64,000 bases of DNA, from NCBI GenBank assembly GCA_000433535.1, contig FR892671.1, positions 159,569-223,568 on the forward strand, in the 5' to 3' direction. Under the pieces are notes generated by a model that was given only the letters and a program-made list of their open reading frames with translations, was not told the DNA's origin and made no database searches. This document shows, in pieces, positions 21,717-63,640 of the stretch (within the stretch, counting starts at the first letter, position 1; every line of letters begins with the position of its first letter). This DNA comes from Dorea sp. CAG:317. Lineage in GTDB: Bacteria > Bacillota > Clostridia > Lachnospirales > Lachnospiraceae. Position numbers and translations under genes: made by a program.

Positions 21717-21756
21717 AAAAAAGTGTCGGTTTTCTACGATAACCGACACTTTTTAT
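21717..21756 (-). terminator. Rho-independent terminator after the 973-aa gene
   Basis: The hairpin is aaaaagtgtcggtt-ttctacgat-aaccgacacttttt, with T/A runs on both sides. Confidence 0.55.
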
Positions 21757-21774: not shown

Positions 21775-24696
21775 TTAAATCTTAAAATCTTCTTCTTTCA
21801 GAATTACTCTGTCAGAATCATCTGTACTCTTTCCGAATACTCTTCTCGCAAGATGTTTTACATTTGCCTTCTGTGAATGAGCAATCGCCTCATCCATGAT
21901 TTCCTTTACTTCTGCAACAGTCACTGCGTGATCTTCTCTCTGCATTACATCAATTCTGCTGTACAATGCAAGAATACCCATCTCATCCAGCTTATATCCA
22001 TTCTCTTTTGCATAGGTCTGACCAAATGTCACCAGTTCATCATTGATAAATACCGGAAGCTCAAGCTTGGATGTGAATTTTCTCTTGAAGTCAGGATTTG
22101 CGGTCAATATTCTCTCAAGCGGCTTTCTCTGATCTTCCAGAACAAAGAGCATCTCTCCGGTCTTCTTTTCCATCAGATAGCTTAACTCTTTTACCGTTCT
22201 CGCATTCAGCTTTCCTGCTTTCTCGATAATGATCGCTCCGCCGCGCAGCTTTTGAATGATATTAGAGAGTTCTTTCTTATTCAAAGATTCTCCGGTTACA
22301 ATCGCAACCTTACCTTGCTTTAAGTTTCTCTGCTTCTGAATCGCTTTTACAATATCTACTGCAAGAACCGTCTTACCGGAACCTTTTCTTCCGATTACGA
22401 GCAGGTTTCCTGTCTTTGATGTGCCTTCTCTCTGAGCTCTTCGATCATTATCAAGAACTTCTACGATCTGCTCACTCATTCCACGAACCGGTACAAAGTA
22501 TGAGAATAACTTTTTCTGTTCCTCTGTAAGTCCTGCCTTTAATCCAATTTCACTGGTAGCACTTAAATCATAGCGTCCGGTAACAACGAATCCGGTATCA
22601 AACGGAACACCGCTTCCCTTGGACTTCTTAATACGCTTCTGAATCTCTGCTTCTGACGGTTCCTCAATTTCAAAGTCCGCTGCTTTCACCGGTTCTTCCT
22701 CGGCAAAAAAGCTGTCAAGATCGAAATCTTCTTCATCCTCCTCAAAATCGTCTTCCTCAAAGTCCTCTTCCTCAAAATCCGCTTCAAAATCATCTTCATC
22801 CTCAGCTTCATCGAATTCATCAAAATCGTCTTCTGAGAAGTCGTCGTCGAAATCGTCCTCATATTCTTCTTCGGCAAAATCCTCTTCGTACGCATCCTCG
22901 AGGTCGTCCTCGGCCTCATACTCTTCGAAATCCTCGCCGTCTTCTACTTCTTCATACTCTTCGAAATCCTCGCCGGCTTCTACTTCTTCATATTCTTCCT
23001 CGTCAAAGTCGTCTTCCTCGTCGTACTCTTCGAAATCTTCCTCGGCTTCTATTTCTTCGTATTCTTCCTCGTCAAAGTCGTCTTCCTCTGCATATTCCAT
23101 ATCATCATATGCAGCTTCATTCTCAAACTCTGCCTGTAAATATTCTTCATCAATCTCTGGAAGTTCTGTCTCTTCTCCACCGATAAAATCGTCTTCTGCA
23201 CCTCCGAAGATCTCTTCTTCCATCTCATCTTCTTCCGTCAGTTCTGCTTCCATCTCTTTCGCAGCCTCTGCGCCTGCAACTCTGCTTTCGAGCTGCTCTA
23301 CAAGTTCGAGAATATCATCCGGAAGTCTCTGTGTCTTACCTTCAAGACCCGGATCTCTGTCTTTTTCTGCCATCTGAACGATTGCTTCCAGTTCTGCTTT
23401 TCGCTCCGCTTCTTCTGCTGCCTTTCTTGCAGCCTCCTCTTCCGCTGCTTTTCTTGCAGCTTCTTCCTCTGCCGCCTTTCTCGCAGCCTCTTCTTCCGCC
23501 GCCTTTCTTGCAGCCTCTTCCTCTGCTGCTTTTCTTGCAGCCTCTGCTTCTGCTGCCTTGCGTTCTATCTCAAGACGTTCTGCCTCTCTTCTTTTCTCGG
23601 CAGCTTCACGCTCTTTACGGATTCGCTCTTCGTCTTTCTTTTTCTGTTCCTCAATGGCATCCGCATGAACTTTCTGTTTTTCTTCCCATTCCTGCAGAAT
23701 CTCATCAATCTTCATCTGGCCTCCGAGAAGAAGTTCTTCTTCTTTCTGTGCCATTGCCTCTTCTTCAATCTTGATACCACTGGCAAGATTCGTCAACGCT
23801 TCTTCTAACGTTGCGCCCGCAACAACTCTTGTAATCGCAGAACTCTTCTCACTCTCTGCCGGTTTTTCTCTTTCTTCCGCCTCTTCAGACACTGCTTCTT
23901 CCCTTGTATCTGCCTGCAGTGCTTCTTCTGGCTTCTCTTCTGCCTGCTCTTCACGAACCGCTTCCGCTTCCTGTGGTTCCTCTTTTCCTGTATTCTCTTC
24001 TTTTACTTGTTCTGCGGCTTTTGTCTGTGCAGCTTTTGCTTTCACTGCTGCCAATGTATTTACTTTCGGTCTCGCACCCGGTCTGCTGTCATATTTTTCC
24101 TGCTGAAGCGGTGTCAAAGGTTTATACTTCATCTTCAGCTCCATCGCCTGATATACGTATTTTCCTTCGCTGAACCAAAGGATCAGATCATCACATTCCT
24201 CAAGACATTTTGCAGTCATTCCTGCCTGATGATACAGACTTGCCAGCTCATACGCCCACTTTTCCACATACTCTGCTTTCTTAAAGTCCTCCAACGCACT
24301 GATCTGCTCTGTAAACGGTGCATTCTGTGCCTTGAGTATCTTATATTTCAAAATATACTGATTCGGATCTTTTGGCGCAACCTTAACAAACTCTTCATAG
24401 CAATCAGATGCCTCATCTGTATCATTGATCTTCAAAGCTAACAATCCGAGGCGATATATGACCTTACGGCTCTCCGGAGCGCGATCATATGCCACAAATA
24501 AAATATCACGGCTCTTCTGGAACTCCCCATTGTATTCATAGATCTCACTGACGGTATTCAACATAGAAGGGTTCTTTACCCTGCGCCAGTCGATCGTGTC
24601 CGCAATTTCCATAGCCTTTTTATACTGCTTTTCTTCTGCGTATTCGAGCATCTGCTCTGTCTTTACCCGATATTCATATTTATCCAATTCTCTCAC
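21775..24696 (-). CDS. Large multidomain protein with N-terminal TPR-like repeats, a charged coiled coil with 5x AARKAAEEE repeats, a roughly 130-aa polyacidic D/E/F/Y tract, and a C-terminal P-loop NTPase-like domain
   Basis: The ORF is 973 aa and continuous. A Walker A motif reads [13 protein letters not shown] candidate Walker B reads GGAIIIE. The repeats are encoded by in-frame DNA tandem repeats. Confidence 0.8.
22915..23090 (-). repeat. In-frame nested tandem DNA repeats (units of about 36 and 66 nt) encoding [10 protein letters not shown]-type acidic repeats
   Basis: Near-identical stretches recur, for example ctcttcgaaatcctcgccg[t/g]cttctacttcttcata and ttcttcctcgtcaaagtcgtcttcctc. 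Confidence 0.7.
23404..23556 (-). repeat. In-frame 27-nt tandem repeat of about 5.5 units encoding (AARKAAEEE)n
   Basis: The unit gc(c/t)gcctttcttgcagcctc(c/t)tcttcc recurs with period 27. Confidence 0.8.
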
Positions 24697-25743
24697 CTCA
24701 AAATATATTAAATTATAGTTTTAGTTACAATTTCACTGATATCAGTTTATCATAAAGACCTGCTGATTGTCAAAATATACGCCTAAATTGTTAAAAAAAT
24801 ATTACAAATTTGCTACAAAAATAGCCATCACAATCATGCTTGATCGTAATGGCTATTTCCTATTGAATTTTATCATACACTTTTATATTAATCGGAGGAA
24901 TCTTATCGATTACCTGTTCCCTTCTTAACCGTTTTCTTTTTATAAACGATTTATGACTCCAAGTCTCAGATTTTACTTATAATCTTCGATACCTTATTTA
25001 TATCCCTCTAAAAGTTTATATAAAATAATTATTTTGATTATTATATCTATAACCGTTCCCTTTATAGCCAGTGCCCTTATTATTTGTCTATAAAAGTATT
25101 AAGTTATTCTCTCTATAATCTTTATTTTATATTCTTTGTTATATACATCTGCCTATCAGAACTGTTGCCCAATAAACAATATGCATATTAATTATATAAA
25201 TCGATAGATTAGGTAATGTTTCTTCACACATTGTCTAATCTCTTTGAAGTTCTGTGGTATTATCCTCAATATGTCTGCAGATGTTAATCTTTATCATCCG
25301 GTTTTCTCTGCTCCGATTTCACTTTTCATTCTCACTTACCGGTTATCTTCTATGGTAAAGGCTTAATTGACGGGAACTTTTCTCTGCCATACCACTAACA
25401 TATTGACTTGTTGATTCTTTTACATTGTCCAATGGATTAAGCCTCCTTTTCTAAATTTCCAAACTCTCCATCTCACCAACATATGAAACAGAATGTTCAC
25501 AAATAACACTTTGCCGGAAAATCCTTTTTTCCTTTGCCAGAACCCTTTCTCGTCAGATTCCTTTTTGTTATTGTTTAATCTCTTTTGGATTGACTTTATA
25601 ATAGCACCGGAGTTTTGATTTGTCAACACTATTTTTGTGTTTTTATTTATTTATTTTATTATTTTTATTCACCGTTATTATTTTCAGACTTTTTGTGTTT
25701 TTATATTTAATTCGCACTTTTCTTTCACTTCTACACAATTCAT

Positions 25744-25836: not shown

Positions 25837-26397
25837 ATGACAACAACGAACTCTATATCTTCCACGAAACGAATGGTCTGGGTTGCTTTATTTACCGCTA
25901 TCACTTGTATTTTAGCCCCTTTGTCCATCCCGATTCCCATCAGTCCTGTGCCAATCACTTTAACGAATCTGGTTCTGTTTATCAGCCTCTATATACTGTC
26001 GTGGAAAGAAGCTCTTATAAGCTATATCCTCTATCTTCTCTTAGGAATCTGCGGGCTTCCGGTATTCTCCGGCTTCTCTGGCGGAATCGGAAAACTTGCA
26101 GGTCCTACCGGAGGATATCTGGCAGGATTTATATTTTTGATTTTAATTGCCGGATTTTTTATGAAAATCTTTCCAAAGAAAAAGACTCTGACGATTCTTG
26201 GCATGGTGCTCGGAATGGCTGCCACCTATATCTTTGGAACACTGTGGCTCGCTGCTCAGATGGAGCTTTCCTTTACCGCCGCCTTATCCGTCGGAGTCTT
26301 TCCTTATTTGCTTGGAGACGCCGTCAAAATTGCCGCCGCCTCCATAGTTGGTCCGATATTACAGAACCGTCTCTTTTTTATCCGCGATAATAATTGA
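25837..26397 (+). CDS. bioY: Biotin transporter BioY (ECF S-component)
   Basis: It is 186 aa with 6 TM segments. The BioY-family pattern is present (PITLTNLVL...GGYLAGF). Confidence 0.9.
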
Positions 26398-28657
26398 TCA
26401 GACATCCTTTCAGAATAATTTCTCTCTCGGCGTCTGTCATATCACCAAGTTTAAAATGAACCTCTTTTAATTCATTTCCCACAACGTATGCCTTGATATC
26501 TGCCGCTTTCTCTTCGATTGCCCGGCGGATATCCGGCACAAATATATAATCACCGTTCTGGAAGCTCAACTTCTCATGGTCTTCTTCGGTAATAAATGGA
26601 AGCATCCCCCAGTTGATCAGGTTCGAGCGATATCTCTTTGTCGCATACTCACATGCAATATTCGCCCATCCTCCAAGAACCTTCTGACAGGATGCGGCTT
26701 GTTCTCTCGCTGAACCGTCTCCTGGTTTTACTGCAAAAATCGTACTTCCGATTCCAAGATTTCCTTCACCTGCTTCCGGGTAGGTTTCTCTTACTTTACC
26801 CATTACTTCTTTTAACTCTTCCAGCACTTCAAGAGGACACGTTCCTGCTTCGATTGCTTTCTGCGCCTTCTGAACTTCCTTTGCTCTTCCCACATAAGCC
26901 GGGTCTTTTCTGGACAATGCAAATTCTGCAAGTCCCAGTGGGTTCGAACGATAGGAGGATGTTTCTCCTGACGGGATCAGTTCGTCTGTAGTTGTTACCG
27001 GATCATGAATCTCAGACACTACTTTCAGAAGCAGATTCTCCGGAAGCGCCGGCATCTTCGGCCAGTCTTTAATGTTCGGACCAAACTTGATCTCCACAGA
27101 ATCATCTGCCACGCCTTTACTGTCAAATACTCTGTTTGCATAGATCTTCTCATCAAAATGATAGGTCTGTCCGGTGTATTCTACATCCATAGCTGTTGCC
27201 GGTGTAAGGAATCCTTTATTTGCTGCTGTTGCCGCAATTGAACGAGCATCCATAAGAGCCACAGATGCAATCTGTCCGCTCTGAAGCTTAGAACCTTCTC
27301 GGTTCGGGAAGTTACGTGTAGAGTGACGAATAGAAAAAGCTCCATTTGCCGGTGTATCCCCTGCGCCAAAACATGGTCCGCAGAATGCTGTCTTCACGAT
27401 TGTTCCTGCCTGCATAAGATCAGCCACCACTCCGTTTTTCACAAGTTCCATATAGATTGGCGTACTTGCCGGATATACACTGAATGTAAATGCATCCGAA
27501 CCGATATAATGACCTTTGATAATATCTGCTGCCGCACAAATATTTTCAAAGCCACCGCCGGCACATCCTGCAATAATTCCCTGATCCACGTATAATTTTC
27601 CATTTACAATCTTGTCCTGAAGCGAATAATCCACAGCGCCGTCAAGACTTATCAGCGCTTTCTTCTCTACGTCATGAAGCACGTCCTTTAAATTTGCATT
27701 GACTTCATCAATCGTGTATACATTAGACGGATGGAACGGCATAGCGATCATCGGTTTGATCTCACTTAAATTTACATACACAAAGCCATCGTAGTAAGCA
27801 ACTGCTCCCGGATTCAATTCTTTGTATTCTTCTACTCTTCCATGAGTCTCATAAAATTCTTTGATTGTTTCATCCGTTTTCCATATAGAAGAAAGACAGG
27901 TCGTCTCTGTTGTCATAACATCAATACCGATACGATAATCTGCACTCAGCTTATCCACACCAGGTCCGACAAATTCCATCACTTTATTATTTACATAGCC
28001 ATTTCCGAATGTCGCGCCTATAATTGCAAGAGCGATATCCTGAGGTCCTACTCCCTTCATCGGCTCACCGTCCAGATAGATTCCTACTACCTGCGGCATC
28101 TTAATATCATAAGTTTTATTTAAAAGCTGTTTTACAAGCTCCGGTCCTCCTTCGCCCATTGCCATCGTTCCCAGCGCACCATAGCGCGTATGGCTGTCCG
28201 ATCCAAGGATCATCTTGCCGCCGCCTGCAAGCATCTCACGGGCATACTGATGGATAACAGCCTGATGAGGCGGCACATAGACACCTCCGTATTTCTTTGC
28301 ACAGGTCAGTCCAAACATATGGTCATCCTCATTGATAGTTCCGCCTACCGCGCACAACGAATTGTGACAGTTGGTAAGAACATACGGAATCGGAAATTTC
28401 TCAAGTCCTGACGCTCTCGCTGTCTGAATGATACCTACGAATGTAATATCATGAGATGTCAACTTATCAAATTTAATCTGCAGTCTGTCCATATTACCGG
28501 ATGTATTATGTTCAGATAAAATATTATAAGCCATTGTTTCTTTGGCTGCTTCTTCTCTGGAAACTTTTCTTCCGGTCTTTGCCGCCACTTCTTCACAGCT
28601 TTCCACAATCTCTGTTCCATTTAACAGATACACACCTTTGTCATATAATTTCACCAT
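26378..28657 (-). CDS. Aconitase-family hydratase (aconitate hydratase-like)
   Basis: It is 759 aa. The motifs GSDSHT, CGPC-like [13 protein letters not shown] and the C-terminal swivel [10 protein letters not shown] are present. Confidence 0.8.
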
Positions 28658-28671
28658 GCCTTCTAGTCCTC

Positions 28672-29757
28672 CTATGCTTTCATATTTTTCATGTGTTCGG
28701 CTACCATCATTGCTATCTTAAATGTCATTGCTTCATCAAATACTCTGACATCAAGCCCCGTTTTCTTCTGAATCTTTTCCAGACGATACACCAGTGTATT
28801 GCGGTGGATATACAGTTGTCTGGACGTCTCAGATATATTTAGATTGTTATCAAAAAATGTATATACGGTTGTCAGTTCTTCCTCTTCGAAAATATCTGCT
28901 GCCCCGCCATGAAAAACTTCTTTCAAGAACATTTCACACAGCGATCTTGGCAGCTGATGAATCAGTCGCCCGATTCCAAGCTCATCATACGCAAGAATTC
29001 CGCGTTCTGCATAAAAGACGCGTCCGACCTCCAGCGCCACTTGCGCCTCCTGATAGGATCGAGGCACTTCTTTTAACTCCTGCACGATTGTACCATACGC
29101 TACGCGCACACTTGCCATCGCCTCCATGTTCAGCGTGTCTGTGATCACCCGGGCAATCTGCTGTGCATCCTCATACCCCTCTGATTGTTCCAGCGCTTTC
29201 ACAAGTATGACATGATGATTATCCACTGCCGTAACAAAATTCTTTCTTCCGGACGCATACAGTCCTCGCAGCGTCTCAATAATCAGATCTTCTCCTTCAT
29301 TTTTCTTCTCGATCACATATACAAGCCTTTTTTGATCTGTTGCAATTCCCATTTTATCTGCCTGATTATAAATATCCACAAGCAACAGATTGTCAAGAAG
29401 CAGATTCTGAATAAAGCGATTCTTATCCAGCTTGTCCTTGTAGGCAGTCAAAAGGCTGGTCAACTGGCTGACTCCCATTCTTCCTGCCATTTCCATATTT
29501 GCAGATTCGCCCTCAAGCGCTAACAGATAGATTGGATTTTCTTCATCAAACACAAAAAAGAACCCCTGTTTTTCCCGCAAAATCTCCAGATTCTCATCAG
29601 CATCCTGCCAGAGTTCCTGCACCTGTTTTTCACACTTCTGCATTTTCTCATGGGTCATTACAAGACAGGTTCCCTTCCTGTCCCATACAGCACAATCAAA
29701 TCCGGCAATATTCTTAATGTCCTGCACCGTTTTATGCAATACTTTATTTGATAACAT
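28672..29757 (-). CDS. PucR/CdaR-family transcriptional regulator
   Basis: The C-terminal HTH ([18 protein letters not shown]) is typical of the PucR family. The start is MLSNK, with a GGGAGG RBS 7 nt upstream. The longer ORF includes that RBS. Confidence 0.75.
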
Positions 29758-30039
29758 ACATATGCCTCCCAAATATTCACATACACGCTTATTCTAGCAC
29801 ATGAAAATAAAGCTGTCTAACATTTTAACGTGCGAAAGCAAACAATTATTCGATATCATATTCTTGATAAAGTTTCTCACACAATTCAAAATCCTGCACC
29901 GCTTTTATATCCGCGAAAAAGGAGTCTTCTTATGAGAATAAGTATAAAGAATCCATCCCCGATTATCAAGGTTTTTCGCATATATGAAATAGAGACTCAT
30001 TACCTGATGATTATTTCCTCTGATTGGACATTTTTGACA

Positions 30040-61865: not shown

Positions 61866-63305
61866 TTAGTAAGATTTTCCCCAGTATGCCATGTGTTTTG
61901 CAGGTTTTCCACAGTAAATACATTTATCGGAAATCATTTCTTCATCCTCGATCAGGCATCGTGTTGCCGCTCCGCCTGTTGCGTATTTTACTTCACCTTC
62001 ACATTCCGGATCTCCACACCAGCATGCTTTTACAAAACCACGATTTGCTTTGAATTTCTCTACCATTTCATCCATAGTTACCGCTGTATCGATGTGGTTG
62101 TCAAGGAATTCCTTAGCTCTGTCATACATATCCTGCTGTTCCTGCTCTAAGATTTCACGCAGTTTTACTGCAATGTCATCCAGAGATACGACAATCTTCT
62201 CACGTGTATCACGACGAACAACAACAACCTGATTTTTCTCGATATCTTTTGGTCCGATCTCGATACGGGTTGGAATACCAAGGATCTCCTGCTCTGAGAA
62301 CTTCCATCCAGGGCTCTTCTCAGAATCATCGATCTTCACGCGGTATCCTGCTTTCTTAAGCTCGTCAAGTAATGCGTATGCACGGTCAAGCACACCTTCT
62401 TTGTGCTGCGCGATCGGAATCACTCTACACTCAACCGGCGCAACGTGTGGTGGAAGAACAAGTCCGTCATCATCACCGTGAACCATGATAAGCGCTCCGA
62501 TACTTCTTGTGGACCATCCCCATGATGTCTCGTATACACTGTGAGGTTCATTGTTTTTATCAATATATTTGATACCAAATGCATCCGGGAATCCACTTCC
62601 GAAGAAATGGCTTGTTGCAGACTGCAATGCCTTACCGTCATGCATCAATGCTTCTACTGTATAAGTGTCCTGAGCTCCGGCAAATTTCTCGTGTTCTGCT
62701 TTTCTTCCTGATACATAAGGAATCGCCATTGTCTCTCTGTAGCAGTCTTCATAGACATGGAACATCTGAATTGTACGTTCTTCCGCTTCTTCATATGTTG
62801 CGTGAATAGTATGTCCTTCCTGCCACAGGAATTCTCTGGAACGAAGGAAAGGTCTTGTTGTCTTCTCCCAACGAAGTACGCTGTTCCACTGGTTCCATAC
62901 TTTCGGAAGATCGCGATAAGATTTTACTGTTCTTGCCCACAGGTCACAGAATAAAGTCTCAGAGGTAGGACGGATACAAAGTCTTTCCTGTAATCTCTCC
63001 ATACCACCGTGTGTTACCCATGCAACTTCCGGTGCAAATCCGTCAATGTGATCTGCTTCTTTCTCTAAAAGACTCTCTGGAATTAAAAGTGGTAAAGATA
63101 CATTTTCTACCCCAGTCTCTTTAAAACGTCTGTCCAAGTCTGCCTGGATCAGTTCCCAGATTGCATAACCATTCGGCAGATAGTTGAGACATCCTTTTAC
63201 ACTTGAATAATCACAAAGTTCTGCTTCGCGCACAACATCTGTATACCACTGCGCGAAATTTTCATCACGAGGTGTGATGTTTTTGACCAATTTTTCTTTT
63301 GCCAT
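61866..63305 (-). CDS. proS: Proline--tRNA ligase (archaeal/eukaryotic-type class II, no editing domain)
   Basis: It is about 480 aa and has a C-terminal zinc-binding domain (CIYCGK). An AAGGAG RBS lies 9 nt before the ATG (MAKEKLV). Confidence 0.9.
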   Translation of the reverse strand: MAKEKLVKNITPRDENFAQWYTDVVREAELCDYSSVKGCLNYLPNGYAIWELIQADLDRRFKETGVENVSLPLLIPESLLEKEADHIDGFAPEVAWVTHGGMERLQERLCIRPTSETLFCDLWARTVKSYRDLPKVWNQWNSVLRWEKTTRPFLRSREFLWQEGHTIHATYEEAEERTIQMFHVYEDCYRETMAIPYVSGRKAEHEKFAGAQDTYTVEALMHDGKALQSATSHFFGSGFPDAFGIKYIDKNNEPHSVYETSWGWSTRSIGALIMVHGDDDGLVLPPHVAPVECRVIPIAQHKEGVLDRAYALLDELKKAGYRVKIDDSEKSPGWKFSEQEILGIPTRIEIGPKDIEKNQVVVVRRDTREKIVVSLDDIAVKLREILEQEQQDMYDRAKEFLDNHIDTAVTMDEMVEKFKANRGFVKACWCGDPECEGEVKYATGGAATRCLIEDEEMISDKCIYCGKPAKHMAYWGKSY

Positions 63306-63334
63306 GTTTCTCTTCTCCTTTTCATACATTTTCG

Positions 63335-63640
63335 CGAAGCCCTTGCCCCGCCTTATATTTTATGAAGAGCGCATCCTGTTGGAAATAAAAAACGCCAAAC
63401 CTTTGCGCTCCCTGCGAAAGGGACCGAAAAGCTCGGCGGTACCACCCTAGTTAACTGTAACCCACTTACAGTTCTCTCATTTATCGTTATCGCTGATAAG
63501 CGCTGTATTTTCATACAGAGGCTCCAAGGCCGGTTCCATATAAGTGTTAGGCAGAAATCTCGCACCATCTGATTTCCTCTCTGAGCCGGCTTACATGTAC
63601 TAATCCTCTTCACAGCCAAAAATCTTGAGTTAAACGTAAT
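63335..63640 (-). ncRNA. T-box riboswitch leader upstream of proS
   Basis: The minus strand contains the conserved T-box sequence AGGGTGGTACCGCCG. On the plus strand this is cggcggtaccaccct at 63435-63449. A downstream terminator and antiterminator arrangement and a U-run are present. Confidence 0.7.

Follow-up and report, generated by a model that had tools for sequence, protein, structure and literature searches.

The window analyzed here, a 64,000-nucleotide (nt) stretch of the genome of Dorea sp. CAG:317 (contig FR892671.1), carries on its minus strand a gene, hereinafter gene X, whose product belongs to no described or annotated family and joins an N-terminal TPR superhelix to a C-terminal, divergent AAA+ domain through a long acidic linker. 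The reading that we favor, at roughly even odds, is that this protein is an EccA-like, client-specific adaptor or scaffold in which the AAA+ domain does not thread substrates like an unfoldase but functions as a nucleotide switch or assembly module. The case for this reading starts from the architecture and the family, the states of the catalytic motifs, the folds, the dynamics of the repeats and the conservation of the promoter, from which we infer nucleotide binding without threading, an adaptor role for the protein and a spacer role for the linker. Three modules are present family-wide, namely the N-terminal TPR superhelix, a linker motif of about 20 amino acids (aa) and the C-terminal AAA+ domain. 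Residue positions throughout are those of the 973-aa open reading frame (ORF) with a GTG start, although the product of gene X is 970 aa long. The gene, its two folded domains and the motifs of the AAA+ module are located as follows.

21775-24687, minus strand: gene X, encoding a 970-aa protein with a TTG start, an exact match to CDD08077.1
24082-24687, minus strand: N-terminal TPR superhelix, residues 4-205, 12 helices, fold confirmed
21778-22551, minus strand: divergent AAA+ module, residues 716-973, fold confirmed
22369-22392, minus strand: Walker A motif GRKGSGKT, residues 769-776
22219-22236, minus strand: Walker B-like motif AIIIEK, residues 821-826
22132-22137, minus strand: invariant Glu-Asp pair E854-D855

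Which AAA+ proteins are the closest relatives of the C-terminal domain? The original prediction, made from the sequence of the window, had discerned in it a P-loop NTPase-like domain with a Walker A motif and a Walker B-like IIIE stretch. The fold is indeed that of AAA+ proteins, the Walker A motif stands at residues 769-776, and IIIE (residues 822-825) falls on the Walker B strand when the domain is aligned to CbbX. Among AAA+ proteins, SpoVK, EccA and CbbX are the closest to this domain both in sequence and in structure: it matches CbbX with E 7e-6 as a single sequence and with E 5e-14 when the family profile is used, the family profile matches EccA1 with E 1e-7, and the SpoVK model TIGR02881 matches over residues 750-940 (E 1.4e-7). 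The cut-offs of the respective families are far from being reached, the scores being 34.2 versus 459.25 bits for CbbX (TIGR02880) and 30.8 versus 422.95 bits for SpoVK (TIGR02881). The SpoVK-EccA-CbbX clade has been defined by a Gly-Tyr (GY) sensor 1, an Asn-x3-Arg finger and a sensor-2 Arg (PMC11513918, the 2024 SpoVK paper). Because all three signatures fail in the gene X family, this family is, by the published definitions, the nearest neighbor of the clade and not a member of it. The caveat attached to the prediction, that the domain might prove to be an annotated paralog of the SpoVK/CbbX type, is therefore half right: SpoVK, CbbX and EccA are the nearest relatives, whereas the domain is no annotated paralog, given that every clade signature is absent. 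In evolutionary terms, the AAA+ module could have descended from the CbbX/SpoVK/EccA group or could be its sister.

The states of the motifs were counted in 95 full-length sequences, down to ~40% identity, with positions mapped onto AlphaFold2 (AF2) strands and CbbX alignments. The Walker A motif GxxGxGK[ST] is essentially invariant, with G769, G774 and T/S776 found in 95/95 sequences and G772 and K775 in 92/95. In the Walker B motif hhhhE, E825 is retained in 92/95, and the next residue is K, R or H in 66/95; the residue pairs are EK in 36 sequences, ER in 21, EG in 7, EH in 6 and EE in only 5, so that hhhhDE with its catalytic Glu is not the Walker B of this family. Exactly at the YIGHTAP segment of CbbX, seven residues of pore loop 1 are deleted. 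At the end of beta4 (sensor 1), where CbbX has GY (ILAGY), E854 is present in 95/95 and D855 in 86/95 sequences, then E, T, Q or D. The arginine-finger-1 position 871 is occupied by Ala in 59 sequences, Arg in 13 and Lys in 7, Asn is found at position 867 in only 35, and residue 873 is Lys in 83. At the sensor-2 position 928, Arg has been replaced by A (42 sequences), T (22), G (14) or S (9). Given that these deviations are uniform across the family and under strong purifying selection, the pattern of conservation identifies the module as re-engineered and not decaying. A domain that has kept an intact P-loop and the Mg-ligand Glu and has lost the pore-loop aromatic residue, the Walker B catalytic Glu, the arginine finger and the sensor-2 Arg would be expected to bind nucleotide and to act as a slow- or non-hydrolyzing switch or assembly module.

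Three known systems provide the points of comparison. EccA (EccA1), the cytosolic ATPase of the mycobacterial ESX/type VII secretion systems (T7SS), has the same domain order as gene X, that is, an N-terminal TPR domain followed by a CbbX-like AAA+ domain; it is regarded as a dedicated chaperone or adaptor rather than as a protease partner, and the N-terminal domains of the clade recruit clients (PMC11513918). The original prediction did not recognize the domain combination of gene X from any described family; the absence of a described family stands, whereas the combination is not unprecedented since TPR plus CbbX-like AAA+ is the known EccA architecture. The differences are nevertheless substantial. 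In EccA the two domains are joined directly, whereas in gene X they are separated by an acidic linker of ~500 aa (126-925 aa in the family); EccA has canonical Walker B, arginine-finger and sensor-2 residues, all of which are missing from gene X; and EccA is encoded in the ESX loci of Actinobacteria, unlike gene X, next to which no T7SS genes were found either among its neighbors in the window or in the >90 related loci, where the neighbors are housekeeping genes. CbbX, the activase of red-type RuBisCO (PDB 3syk/3zuh), differs from gene X in having neither the TPR domain nor the linker; relative to CbbX, gene X has the YIGHTAP pore loop deleted, the DE of Walker B changed to E[K/R/H] and the GY of sensor 1 to ED, and both the arginine finger and the sensor-2 Arg lost. 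SpoVK, which serves MurG as an AAA+ chaperone during sporulation, shares with gene X the higher-order AAA+ group and the occurrence in Bacillota. Its N-terminal domain is short and beta-rich, its catalytic motifs are canonical, its ATPase activity has been demonstrated and its expression is specific to sporulation (PMC11513918), in contrast to the degenerate motifs and the conserved sigmaA-type promoter of gene X.

Could the protein nevertheless be a fully active AAA+ remodeling chaperone like CbbX, SpoVK or EccA, that is, a hexameric, ATP-hydrolyzing machine acting on a dedicated client recruited by the TPR domain? We consider this unlikely, albeit worth serious attention, and regard in the same way the form that it would take, in which catalysis has been relocated, E854/D855 supplying the catalytic acid and K873 a lysine finger. 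The nearest relatives of the domain are active dedicated chaperones (PMC11513918), purifying selection on the P-loop, E825, E854-D855 and K873 is very strong, and the AAA+ domain shows 0 substitutions among 15 strain variants. Set against this are the deletion of the pore-loop-1 segment, the K, R or H that stands in place of the Walker B catalytic Glu in most members, the Ala at the arginine-finger-1 position in 59/95, the absence of the sensor-2 Arg and the loss of all three published signatures of the clade. Two of the conserved features weigh against an adaptor with a nucleotide switch: the conserved P-loop and E825, together with E854-D855 by the gamma-phosphate site, could sustain ATP hydrolysis via a non-canonical residue, and the conserved Lys873 could serve as a trans-acting finger.

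Under the adaptor reading, a partner or client would most likely be bound by the N-terminal domain. Here, stacked helix-turn-helix repeats form a superhelix of 12 helices, so that the TPR-like N-terminus proposed at the outset turns out to be a TPR fold in the proper sense, with a conserved C-x3-C pair (C164/C168) and a highly conserved C-terminal cap. The superhelix is followed by the linker, which consists of several distinct segments.

23842-24081, minus strand: variable E/A/K/P-rich low-complexity segment, residues 206-285, rich in gaps and at an identity of 0.05-0.26 across 67 close relatives
23659-23841, minus strand: conserved linker island, residues 286-346, holding the family-wide motif (residues 325-342, nt 23671-23724)
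23386-23664, minus strand: putative ER/K-type charged helix, residues 345-437, including the (EAARKAAEE)n repeat at 23409-23559
22651-23259, minus strand: polyacidic and aromatic tract, residues ~480-682, with 15-, 36- and 69-bp tandem repeats
22552-22677, minus strand: conserved segment preceding the AAA+ domain, residues 674-715, identity 0.68-0.97 in close relatives, found in 24/147 representatives

Across the family, the linker is E-rich and ranges from 126 to 925 aa, with a median of 461, and its net charge is negative without exception (-17 to -280). A transmembrane segment in the linker can be ruled out, none that is convincing having been found across the family. In the 67 close relatives, nearly gap-free conserved islands are located at residues 288-345, 454-473 and 674-715. 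The first of these includes an amphipathic, Trp-containing motif with the consensus QITGQMSIEDILAEWEKTK, often preceded by DGQ[MI]S[LM], which is recognizable in 46/147 representatives including the most distant ones (~40% identity). In the order that we propose for the linker, this amphipathic Trp motif would be followed by a stiff ER/K helix and then by lineage-specific poly-D/E tracts with regularly spaced F/Y. The acidic part could serve as a long spacer or as a polyanionic arm or tether, possibly one that touches in cis the AAA+ domain, which is basic (isoelectric point 9.4), or the TPR groove.

The helix calls for a separate comment, given that the original prediction described this region as an (AARKAAEEE)5 coiled coil. 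The repeat itself is there, as a 27-bp unit x 5.6 that encodes 4 exact copies of AARKAAEEE plus imperfect flanking ones; a coiled coil, in contrast, does not fit the composition. In residues 345-437, A and E account for 32% each and K+R for 27%, and Pro and Gly are absent; hydrophobic residues amount to 5% overall and to <=11% of the heptad a/d positions, and 36 i/i+4 pairs of opposite charge are present. Because of this composition, the salt-bridge pairs and the lack of a hydrophobic seam, the segment fits an ER/K single alpha-helix, that is, a stiff spacer, rather than a coiled coil, as far as can be judged from composition. Spacers of this type, for instance in myosin VI/X and caldesmon, were reportedly described by Sivaramakrishnan and colleagues in 2008 and by Suveges and colleagues in 2009; to our knowledge, they have rarely been described in bacterial proteins. 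What these spacers have in common with residues 345-437 is a composition of E, R, K and A only, dense i/i+4 salt bridges and no hydrophobic seam, and the analogy is a functional one only.

The acidic part of the linker evolves in a peculiar manner. Variation in its length, which the original prediction suggested should be sought in related genomes, is real and extends even to strains: within the 90%-identity cluster of the gene X protein, lengths range from 963 to 999 aa, and once the deviating N-terminal start calls of two records are set aside, the sequences differ in length by whole in-frame repeat units only. The strain-variable units are the 12-aa DFEEYEEVE[D/A]GE, in 2-4 copies, the 5-aa EEDFE, present or absent, and the 9-aa EAARKAAEE, whose copy number differs by one. 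Among 66 related species, the length of the acidic tract is 119-472 aa, and the repeat unit differs between species, with (EEYEDAEEYEE)n, for example, in another species. Since strain lengths differ by whole in-frame repeat units, the alignments show a tract that evolves by replication slippage and is apparently constrained in its composition, not in its sequence; the acidic tracts would thus grow and shrink through in-frame slippage of tandem repeats.

How widespread is this architecture? An exhaustive HMMER search with the C-terminal domain of gene X against representatives at 50% identity yields 2089 matches at E<=1e-3, of which 689 are at E<1e-30. Of the 147 best representatives, 94 are full length, with a total length of ~580 to 1376 aa, and all 94 also carry the N-terminal TPR domain from residue 1, so that the search for the same architecture in related genomes, proposed as a check of the prediction, finds TPR and AAA+ together in 94/147. 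Relatives of gene X are present in >=596 species-representative genomes. The 80 best genomes (Dorea, Faecalicatena, Extibacter, Merdimonas, Sporofaciens, Bariatricus, Coprococcus comes, Sellimonas and similar) are all Lachnospiraceae, except for a few evidently mis-binned contigs; distant members carry names such as "hypothetical protein [Lachnospiraceae bacterium]" or "TPR protein [Eubacteriales]". Judged from the named subset of the matches, the family appears to be restricted to Lachnospiraceae. Three contigs with gene X and glgB are binned as "Clostridium sp. CAG:343", "Bacteroidaceae bacterium" and "Parabacteroides distasonis", and at least the latter two look mis-binned. Literature searches found no paper describing the family, and in public records its members go by "hypothetical", "TPR protein", "AAA family ATPase" or the spurious "NB-ARC". 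What is undescribed is thus the family with its non-canonical catalytic site, which is consistent among the members, its conserved linker motif and its polyacidic arm of minisatellite-like character, whereas the folds and the idea of TPR plus AAA+ are known.

Searches for homologous proteins with each of the two domains return only fragments of <=540 aa, most database entries being 200-540 aa long, and the full-length architecture was accordingly taken from the representative library and from genome loci. Short-read assemblies break or frame-shift gene X inside the repeats and leave N gaps (for example, in nine of the related loci), and hundreds of "partial" entries are misnamed as NB-ARC domain-containing, pentapeptide repeat-containing or P-loop NTPase. 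In other words, most database entries are truncated and misnamed because short-read assemblies break in repeats of variable copy number. An apparent split of the gene, with 279-aa "proteins" consisting of the C-domain only (289 contigs), is an artefact of 100-N scaffold gaps inside the acidic repeats.

The gene itself is real, and a chance origin of the ORF can be excluded because it is unbroken in all related genomes whose assemblies are free of N gaps (lengths 778-1527 aa). The 973-aa protein of the original prediction corresponds to an unbroken 973-codon ORF (21775-24696, minus strand) in the ORF listing of the window; the uninterrupted frame is beyond doubt, and the start and the length have to be corrected. 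The GTG at 24696 falls within the Shine-Dalgarno sequence GAGGTGA (24699-24693), residue 1 of the homologs aligns to residue 4 of the 973-aa ORF, TTG is the start codon in 67/71 related loci, and the identical public protein, CDD08077.1 ("putative uncharacterized protein [Dorea sp. CAG:317]"), is 970 aa long and starts with TTG. For these reasons, gene X is to be delimited as 21775-24687, and the GTG start is an over-extension beyond the conserved TTG at 24687. The signals that flank the coding sequence are these.

24693-24699, minus strand: Shine-Dalgarno sequence GAGGTGA, 5 nt 5' of the TTG start, conserved in related loci
24744-24773, minus strand: sigmaA-type extended -10 promoter of gene X, TTGACA, 17-18 nt spacer, TGnTAAACT, motif kept in 69/71 loci
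21718-21754, minus strand: the intrinsic terminator belonging to gene X, in the gap before glgB, with a U-run behind it (-18.5 kcal/mol, z -6.5)

The conserved form of the promoter in the 69/71 related loci is TTGACA, 17 nt, TGnTAnAnT. Conservation of a sigmaA-type promoter together with that of a weak TTG start suggests that expression of gene X is constitutive and modest, and given that the conserved promoter is sigmaA-like, sporulation-specific expression finds no support. The terminator bears out the earlier statement that the gene has its own.

In the window, gene X lies in the company of glgB, AraC, MFS, GH36, BioY, an aconitase-family gene and PucR. Its placement between glgB and a long non-coding tract was read correctly: glgB is directly downstream, and a 1.1-kb ORF-poor tract is upstream. 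The gene order raises the possibility, in our opinion a rather improbable one, that gene X is a factor of glycogen metabolism, namely one that serves GlgB or glycogen granules as a dedicated partner, chaperone or scaffold; modeled on the action of CbbX on RuBisCO and of SpoVK on MurG, such a role would be compatible with either the adaptor or the active-chaperone mechanism. GlgB is found directly downstream of X in ~73/80 close loci. Among 10 divergent lineages (~40-55% identity to gene X), X is followed by glgB in 4, with operon-like gaps of 13-70 nt; in 2/10 it is followed by KsgA, in one of these with glycogen phosphorylase as the upstream neighbor, and the others differ. On the other side, 6/10 of the divergent lineages have no glgB beside X, a decay of adjacency that fits inherited synteny; in the window, a strong terminator separates X from glgB, which has its own promoters; and no other glg genes are near gene X in the window. 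The same divergent lineages have an AI-2E-family permease directly upstream of X in 5/10 and an aconitase-family gene kept near X in 5/10. The simplest reading of these gene orders is an ancestral arrangement Acn, AI-2E, X, GlgB that erodes with distance. If gene order points to a client at all, GlgB would be the sole candidate, and it is a possible one rather than a compelling one.

Some of the neighbors of gene X have a conserved arrangement of their own. The aconitase-family protein (755-770 aa, 76-91% identity) is syntenic with X family-wide (in the window, 26378-29772, minus strand; also in five of the related loci), and in the gene X clade it is accompanied by a PucR-type regulator. Between the aconitase-family gene and X, distant members have the AI-2E-family permease, and the gene X clade has a divergent bioY and an RNA element. 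In three distant relatives, X and glgB are followed downstream by a DUF6240 protein of ~1060 aa and then by flagellin, FliS, DUF2508 and BofA, which together make up another conserved block whose large DUF protein is likewise uncharacterized.

A more elaborate scenario, speculative and in our estimate doubtful, would make the family a hitherto unrecognized class of pseudo-AAA+ organizers of Lachnospiraceae. Here, a P-loop module deprived of its apparatus for threading and trans-activation would serve as an ATP-gated assembly switch and, tethered by the ER/K helix and the strain-variable polyanionic arm to a client-binding TPR head, would build a cytoplasmic hub or condensate for an ancestral set of partners from neighboring genes, for instance the glycogen-branching enzyme or glycogen granules, and the repeat polymorphism would tune assembly between strains.

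Should the core function instead be sought in the polyacidic tract, as a DNA mimic or a Ca2+/Mg2+ buffer? The original prediction, which had noticed a D/E/F/Y tract of roughly 130 residues and had proposed polyanionic, possibly DNA-mimic or cation-binding behavior, was right about the tract and underestimated its size: it spans residues ~480-682, about 200 aa in all. D/E make up 60% of it and F/Y 15%, the 185 residues 484-668 do not include a single K, R or H, and the linkers are net acidic family-wide. However, dense poly-D/E/F/Y tracts are confined to the closer relatives, those above ~55% identity, and only the net acidity extends to the whole family, which makes DNA mimicry or cation binding unlikely as the core function of the family. 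Furthermore, neither the length nor the sequence of the tract is conserved, even between strains, selection acts on other modules, namely the TPR domain, the Trp motif and the AAA+ domain, and a disordered repeat lacks the fixed, DNA-like charge geometry. Altogether, we find this explanation highly improbable.

Finally, that the protein is a STAND/NB-ARC-type signaling NTPase or a component of anti-phage defense, as some database names have it (NCBI calls some fragments "NB-ARC domain-containing"), is barely conceivable, considering that the Pfam NB-ARC match to the C-domain alone (25.2 bits) is partial, covers the region from the P-loop to Walker B (only model positions 20-128 of 248), is found in 5/24 members and drops to 21.0 bits, against the gathering threshold of 23.5, for the full protein, that the PADLOC match to mad8 (E 9e-6) amounts to only 23 bits over 65 residues at the P-loop, and that the layout is not that of STAND proteins, in which repeats lie C-terminal to a full NB-ARC domain (NTPase plus ARC1/ARC2): in gene X, the TPR domain comes first and nothing follows the AAA+ lid.

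Apart from gene X, the window contains a candidate for a new structured RNA of ~780 nt, found in the Dorea/C. scindens clade and suggested by the sequence comparisons. The predicted RNA would run from 25590 to 24817 on the minus strand. The respective tract lies upstream of X (24817-25626, minus strand), with the best-conserved core at ~25197-25463, and shows 70-86% DNA identity in >50 Lachnospiraceae species. It has a near-consensus sigma70 promoter (25626-25598, minus strand) and a strong terminator (24817-24860, -25.5 kcal/mol, z -6.6). In a long-range helix, UCAAUAUGU...:...ACAUAUUGA, 4 sequences carry compensatory changes from G-C to A-U, and covariation is likewise seen in an inner CCGG:CCGG helix. 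A search of Rfam with the tract yielded no match at the gathering threshold or at E<=1. In some genomes (four of the loci), the element is located ~1.7 kb from the gene X promoter, so it is taken to be a transcription unit of its own, and it was not found 5' of X in distant family members. The tract also includes a 29-aa ORF (25343-25432, minus strand; MDNVKESTSQYVSGMAEKSSRQLSLYHRR) with a strong Shine-Dalgarno sequence, AAAGGAGG, conserved in 47/52 loci. Because the third codon positions show no relaxation, being as constrained as the first and second ones, this conservation is rejected as evidence of coding; the core codons constitute one strand of the conserved RNA helix, and the same bases covary. 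The only Rfam match in the window at the gathering threshold is a T-box leader (RF00230, 102.9 bits; 63416-63622, minus strand) upstream of a 487-aa ORF (61866-63329).

Lachnospiraceae are dominant and medically relevant gut commensals that include bile-acid converters related to C. scindens, and gene X represents a large, strongly conserved, uncharacterized family in these bacteria. For AAA+ proteins in general, the family amounts to a natural experiment in which the P-loop has been kept under strict selection, the Walker B catalytic Glu has been systematically replaced, the pore loop has been deleted, both arginines have been lost and an invariant Glu-Asp pair has been gained at sensor 1. 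The outcome would be either a non-canonical solution to catalysis or a clear case of a bacterial AAA+ domain repurposed as a nucleotide switch.

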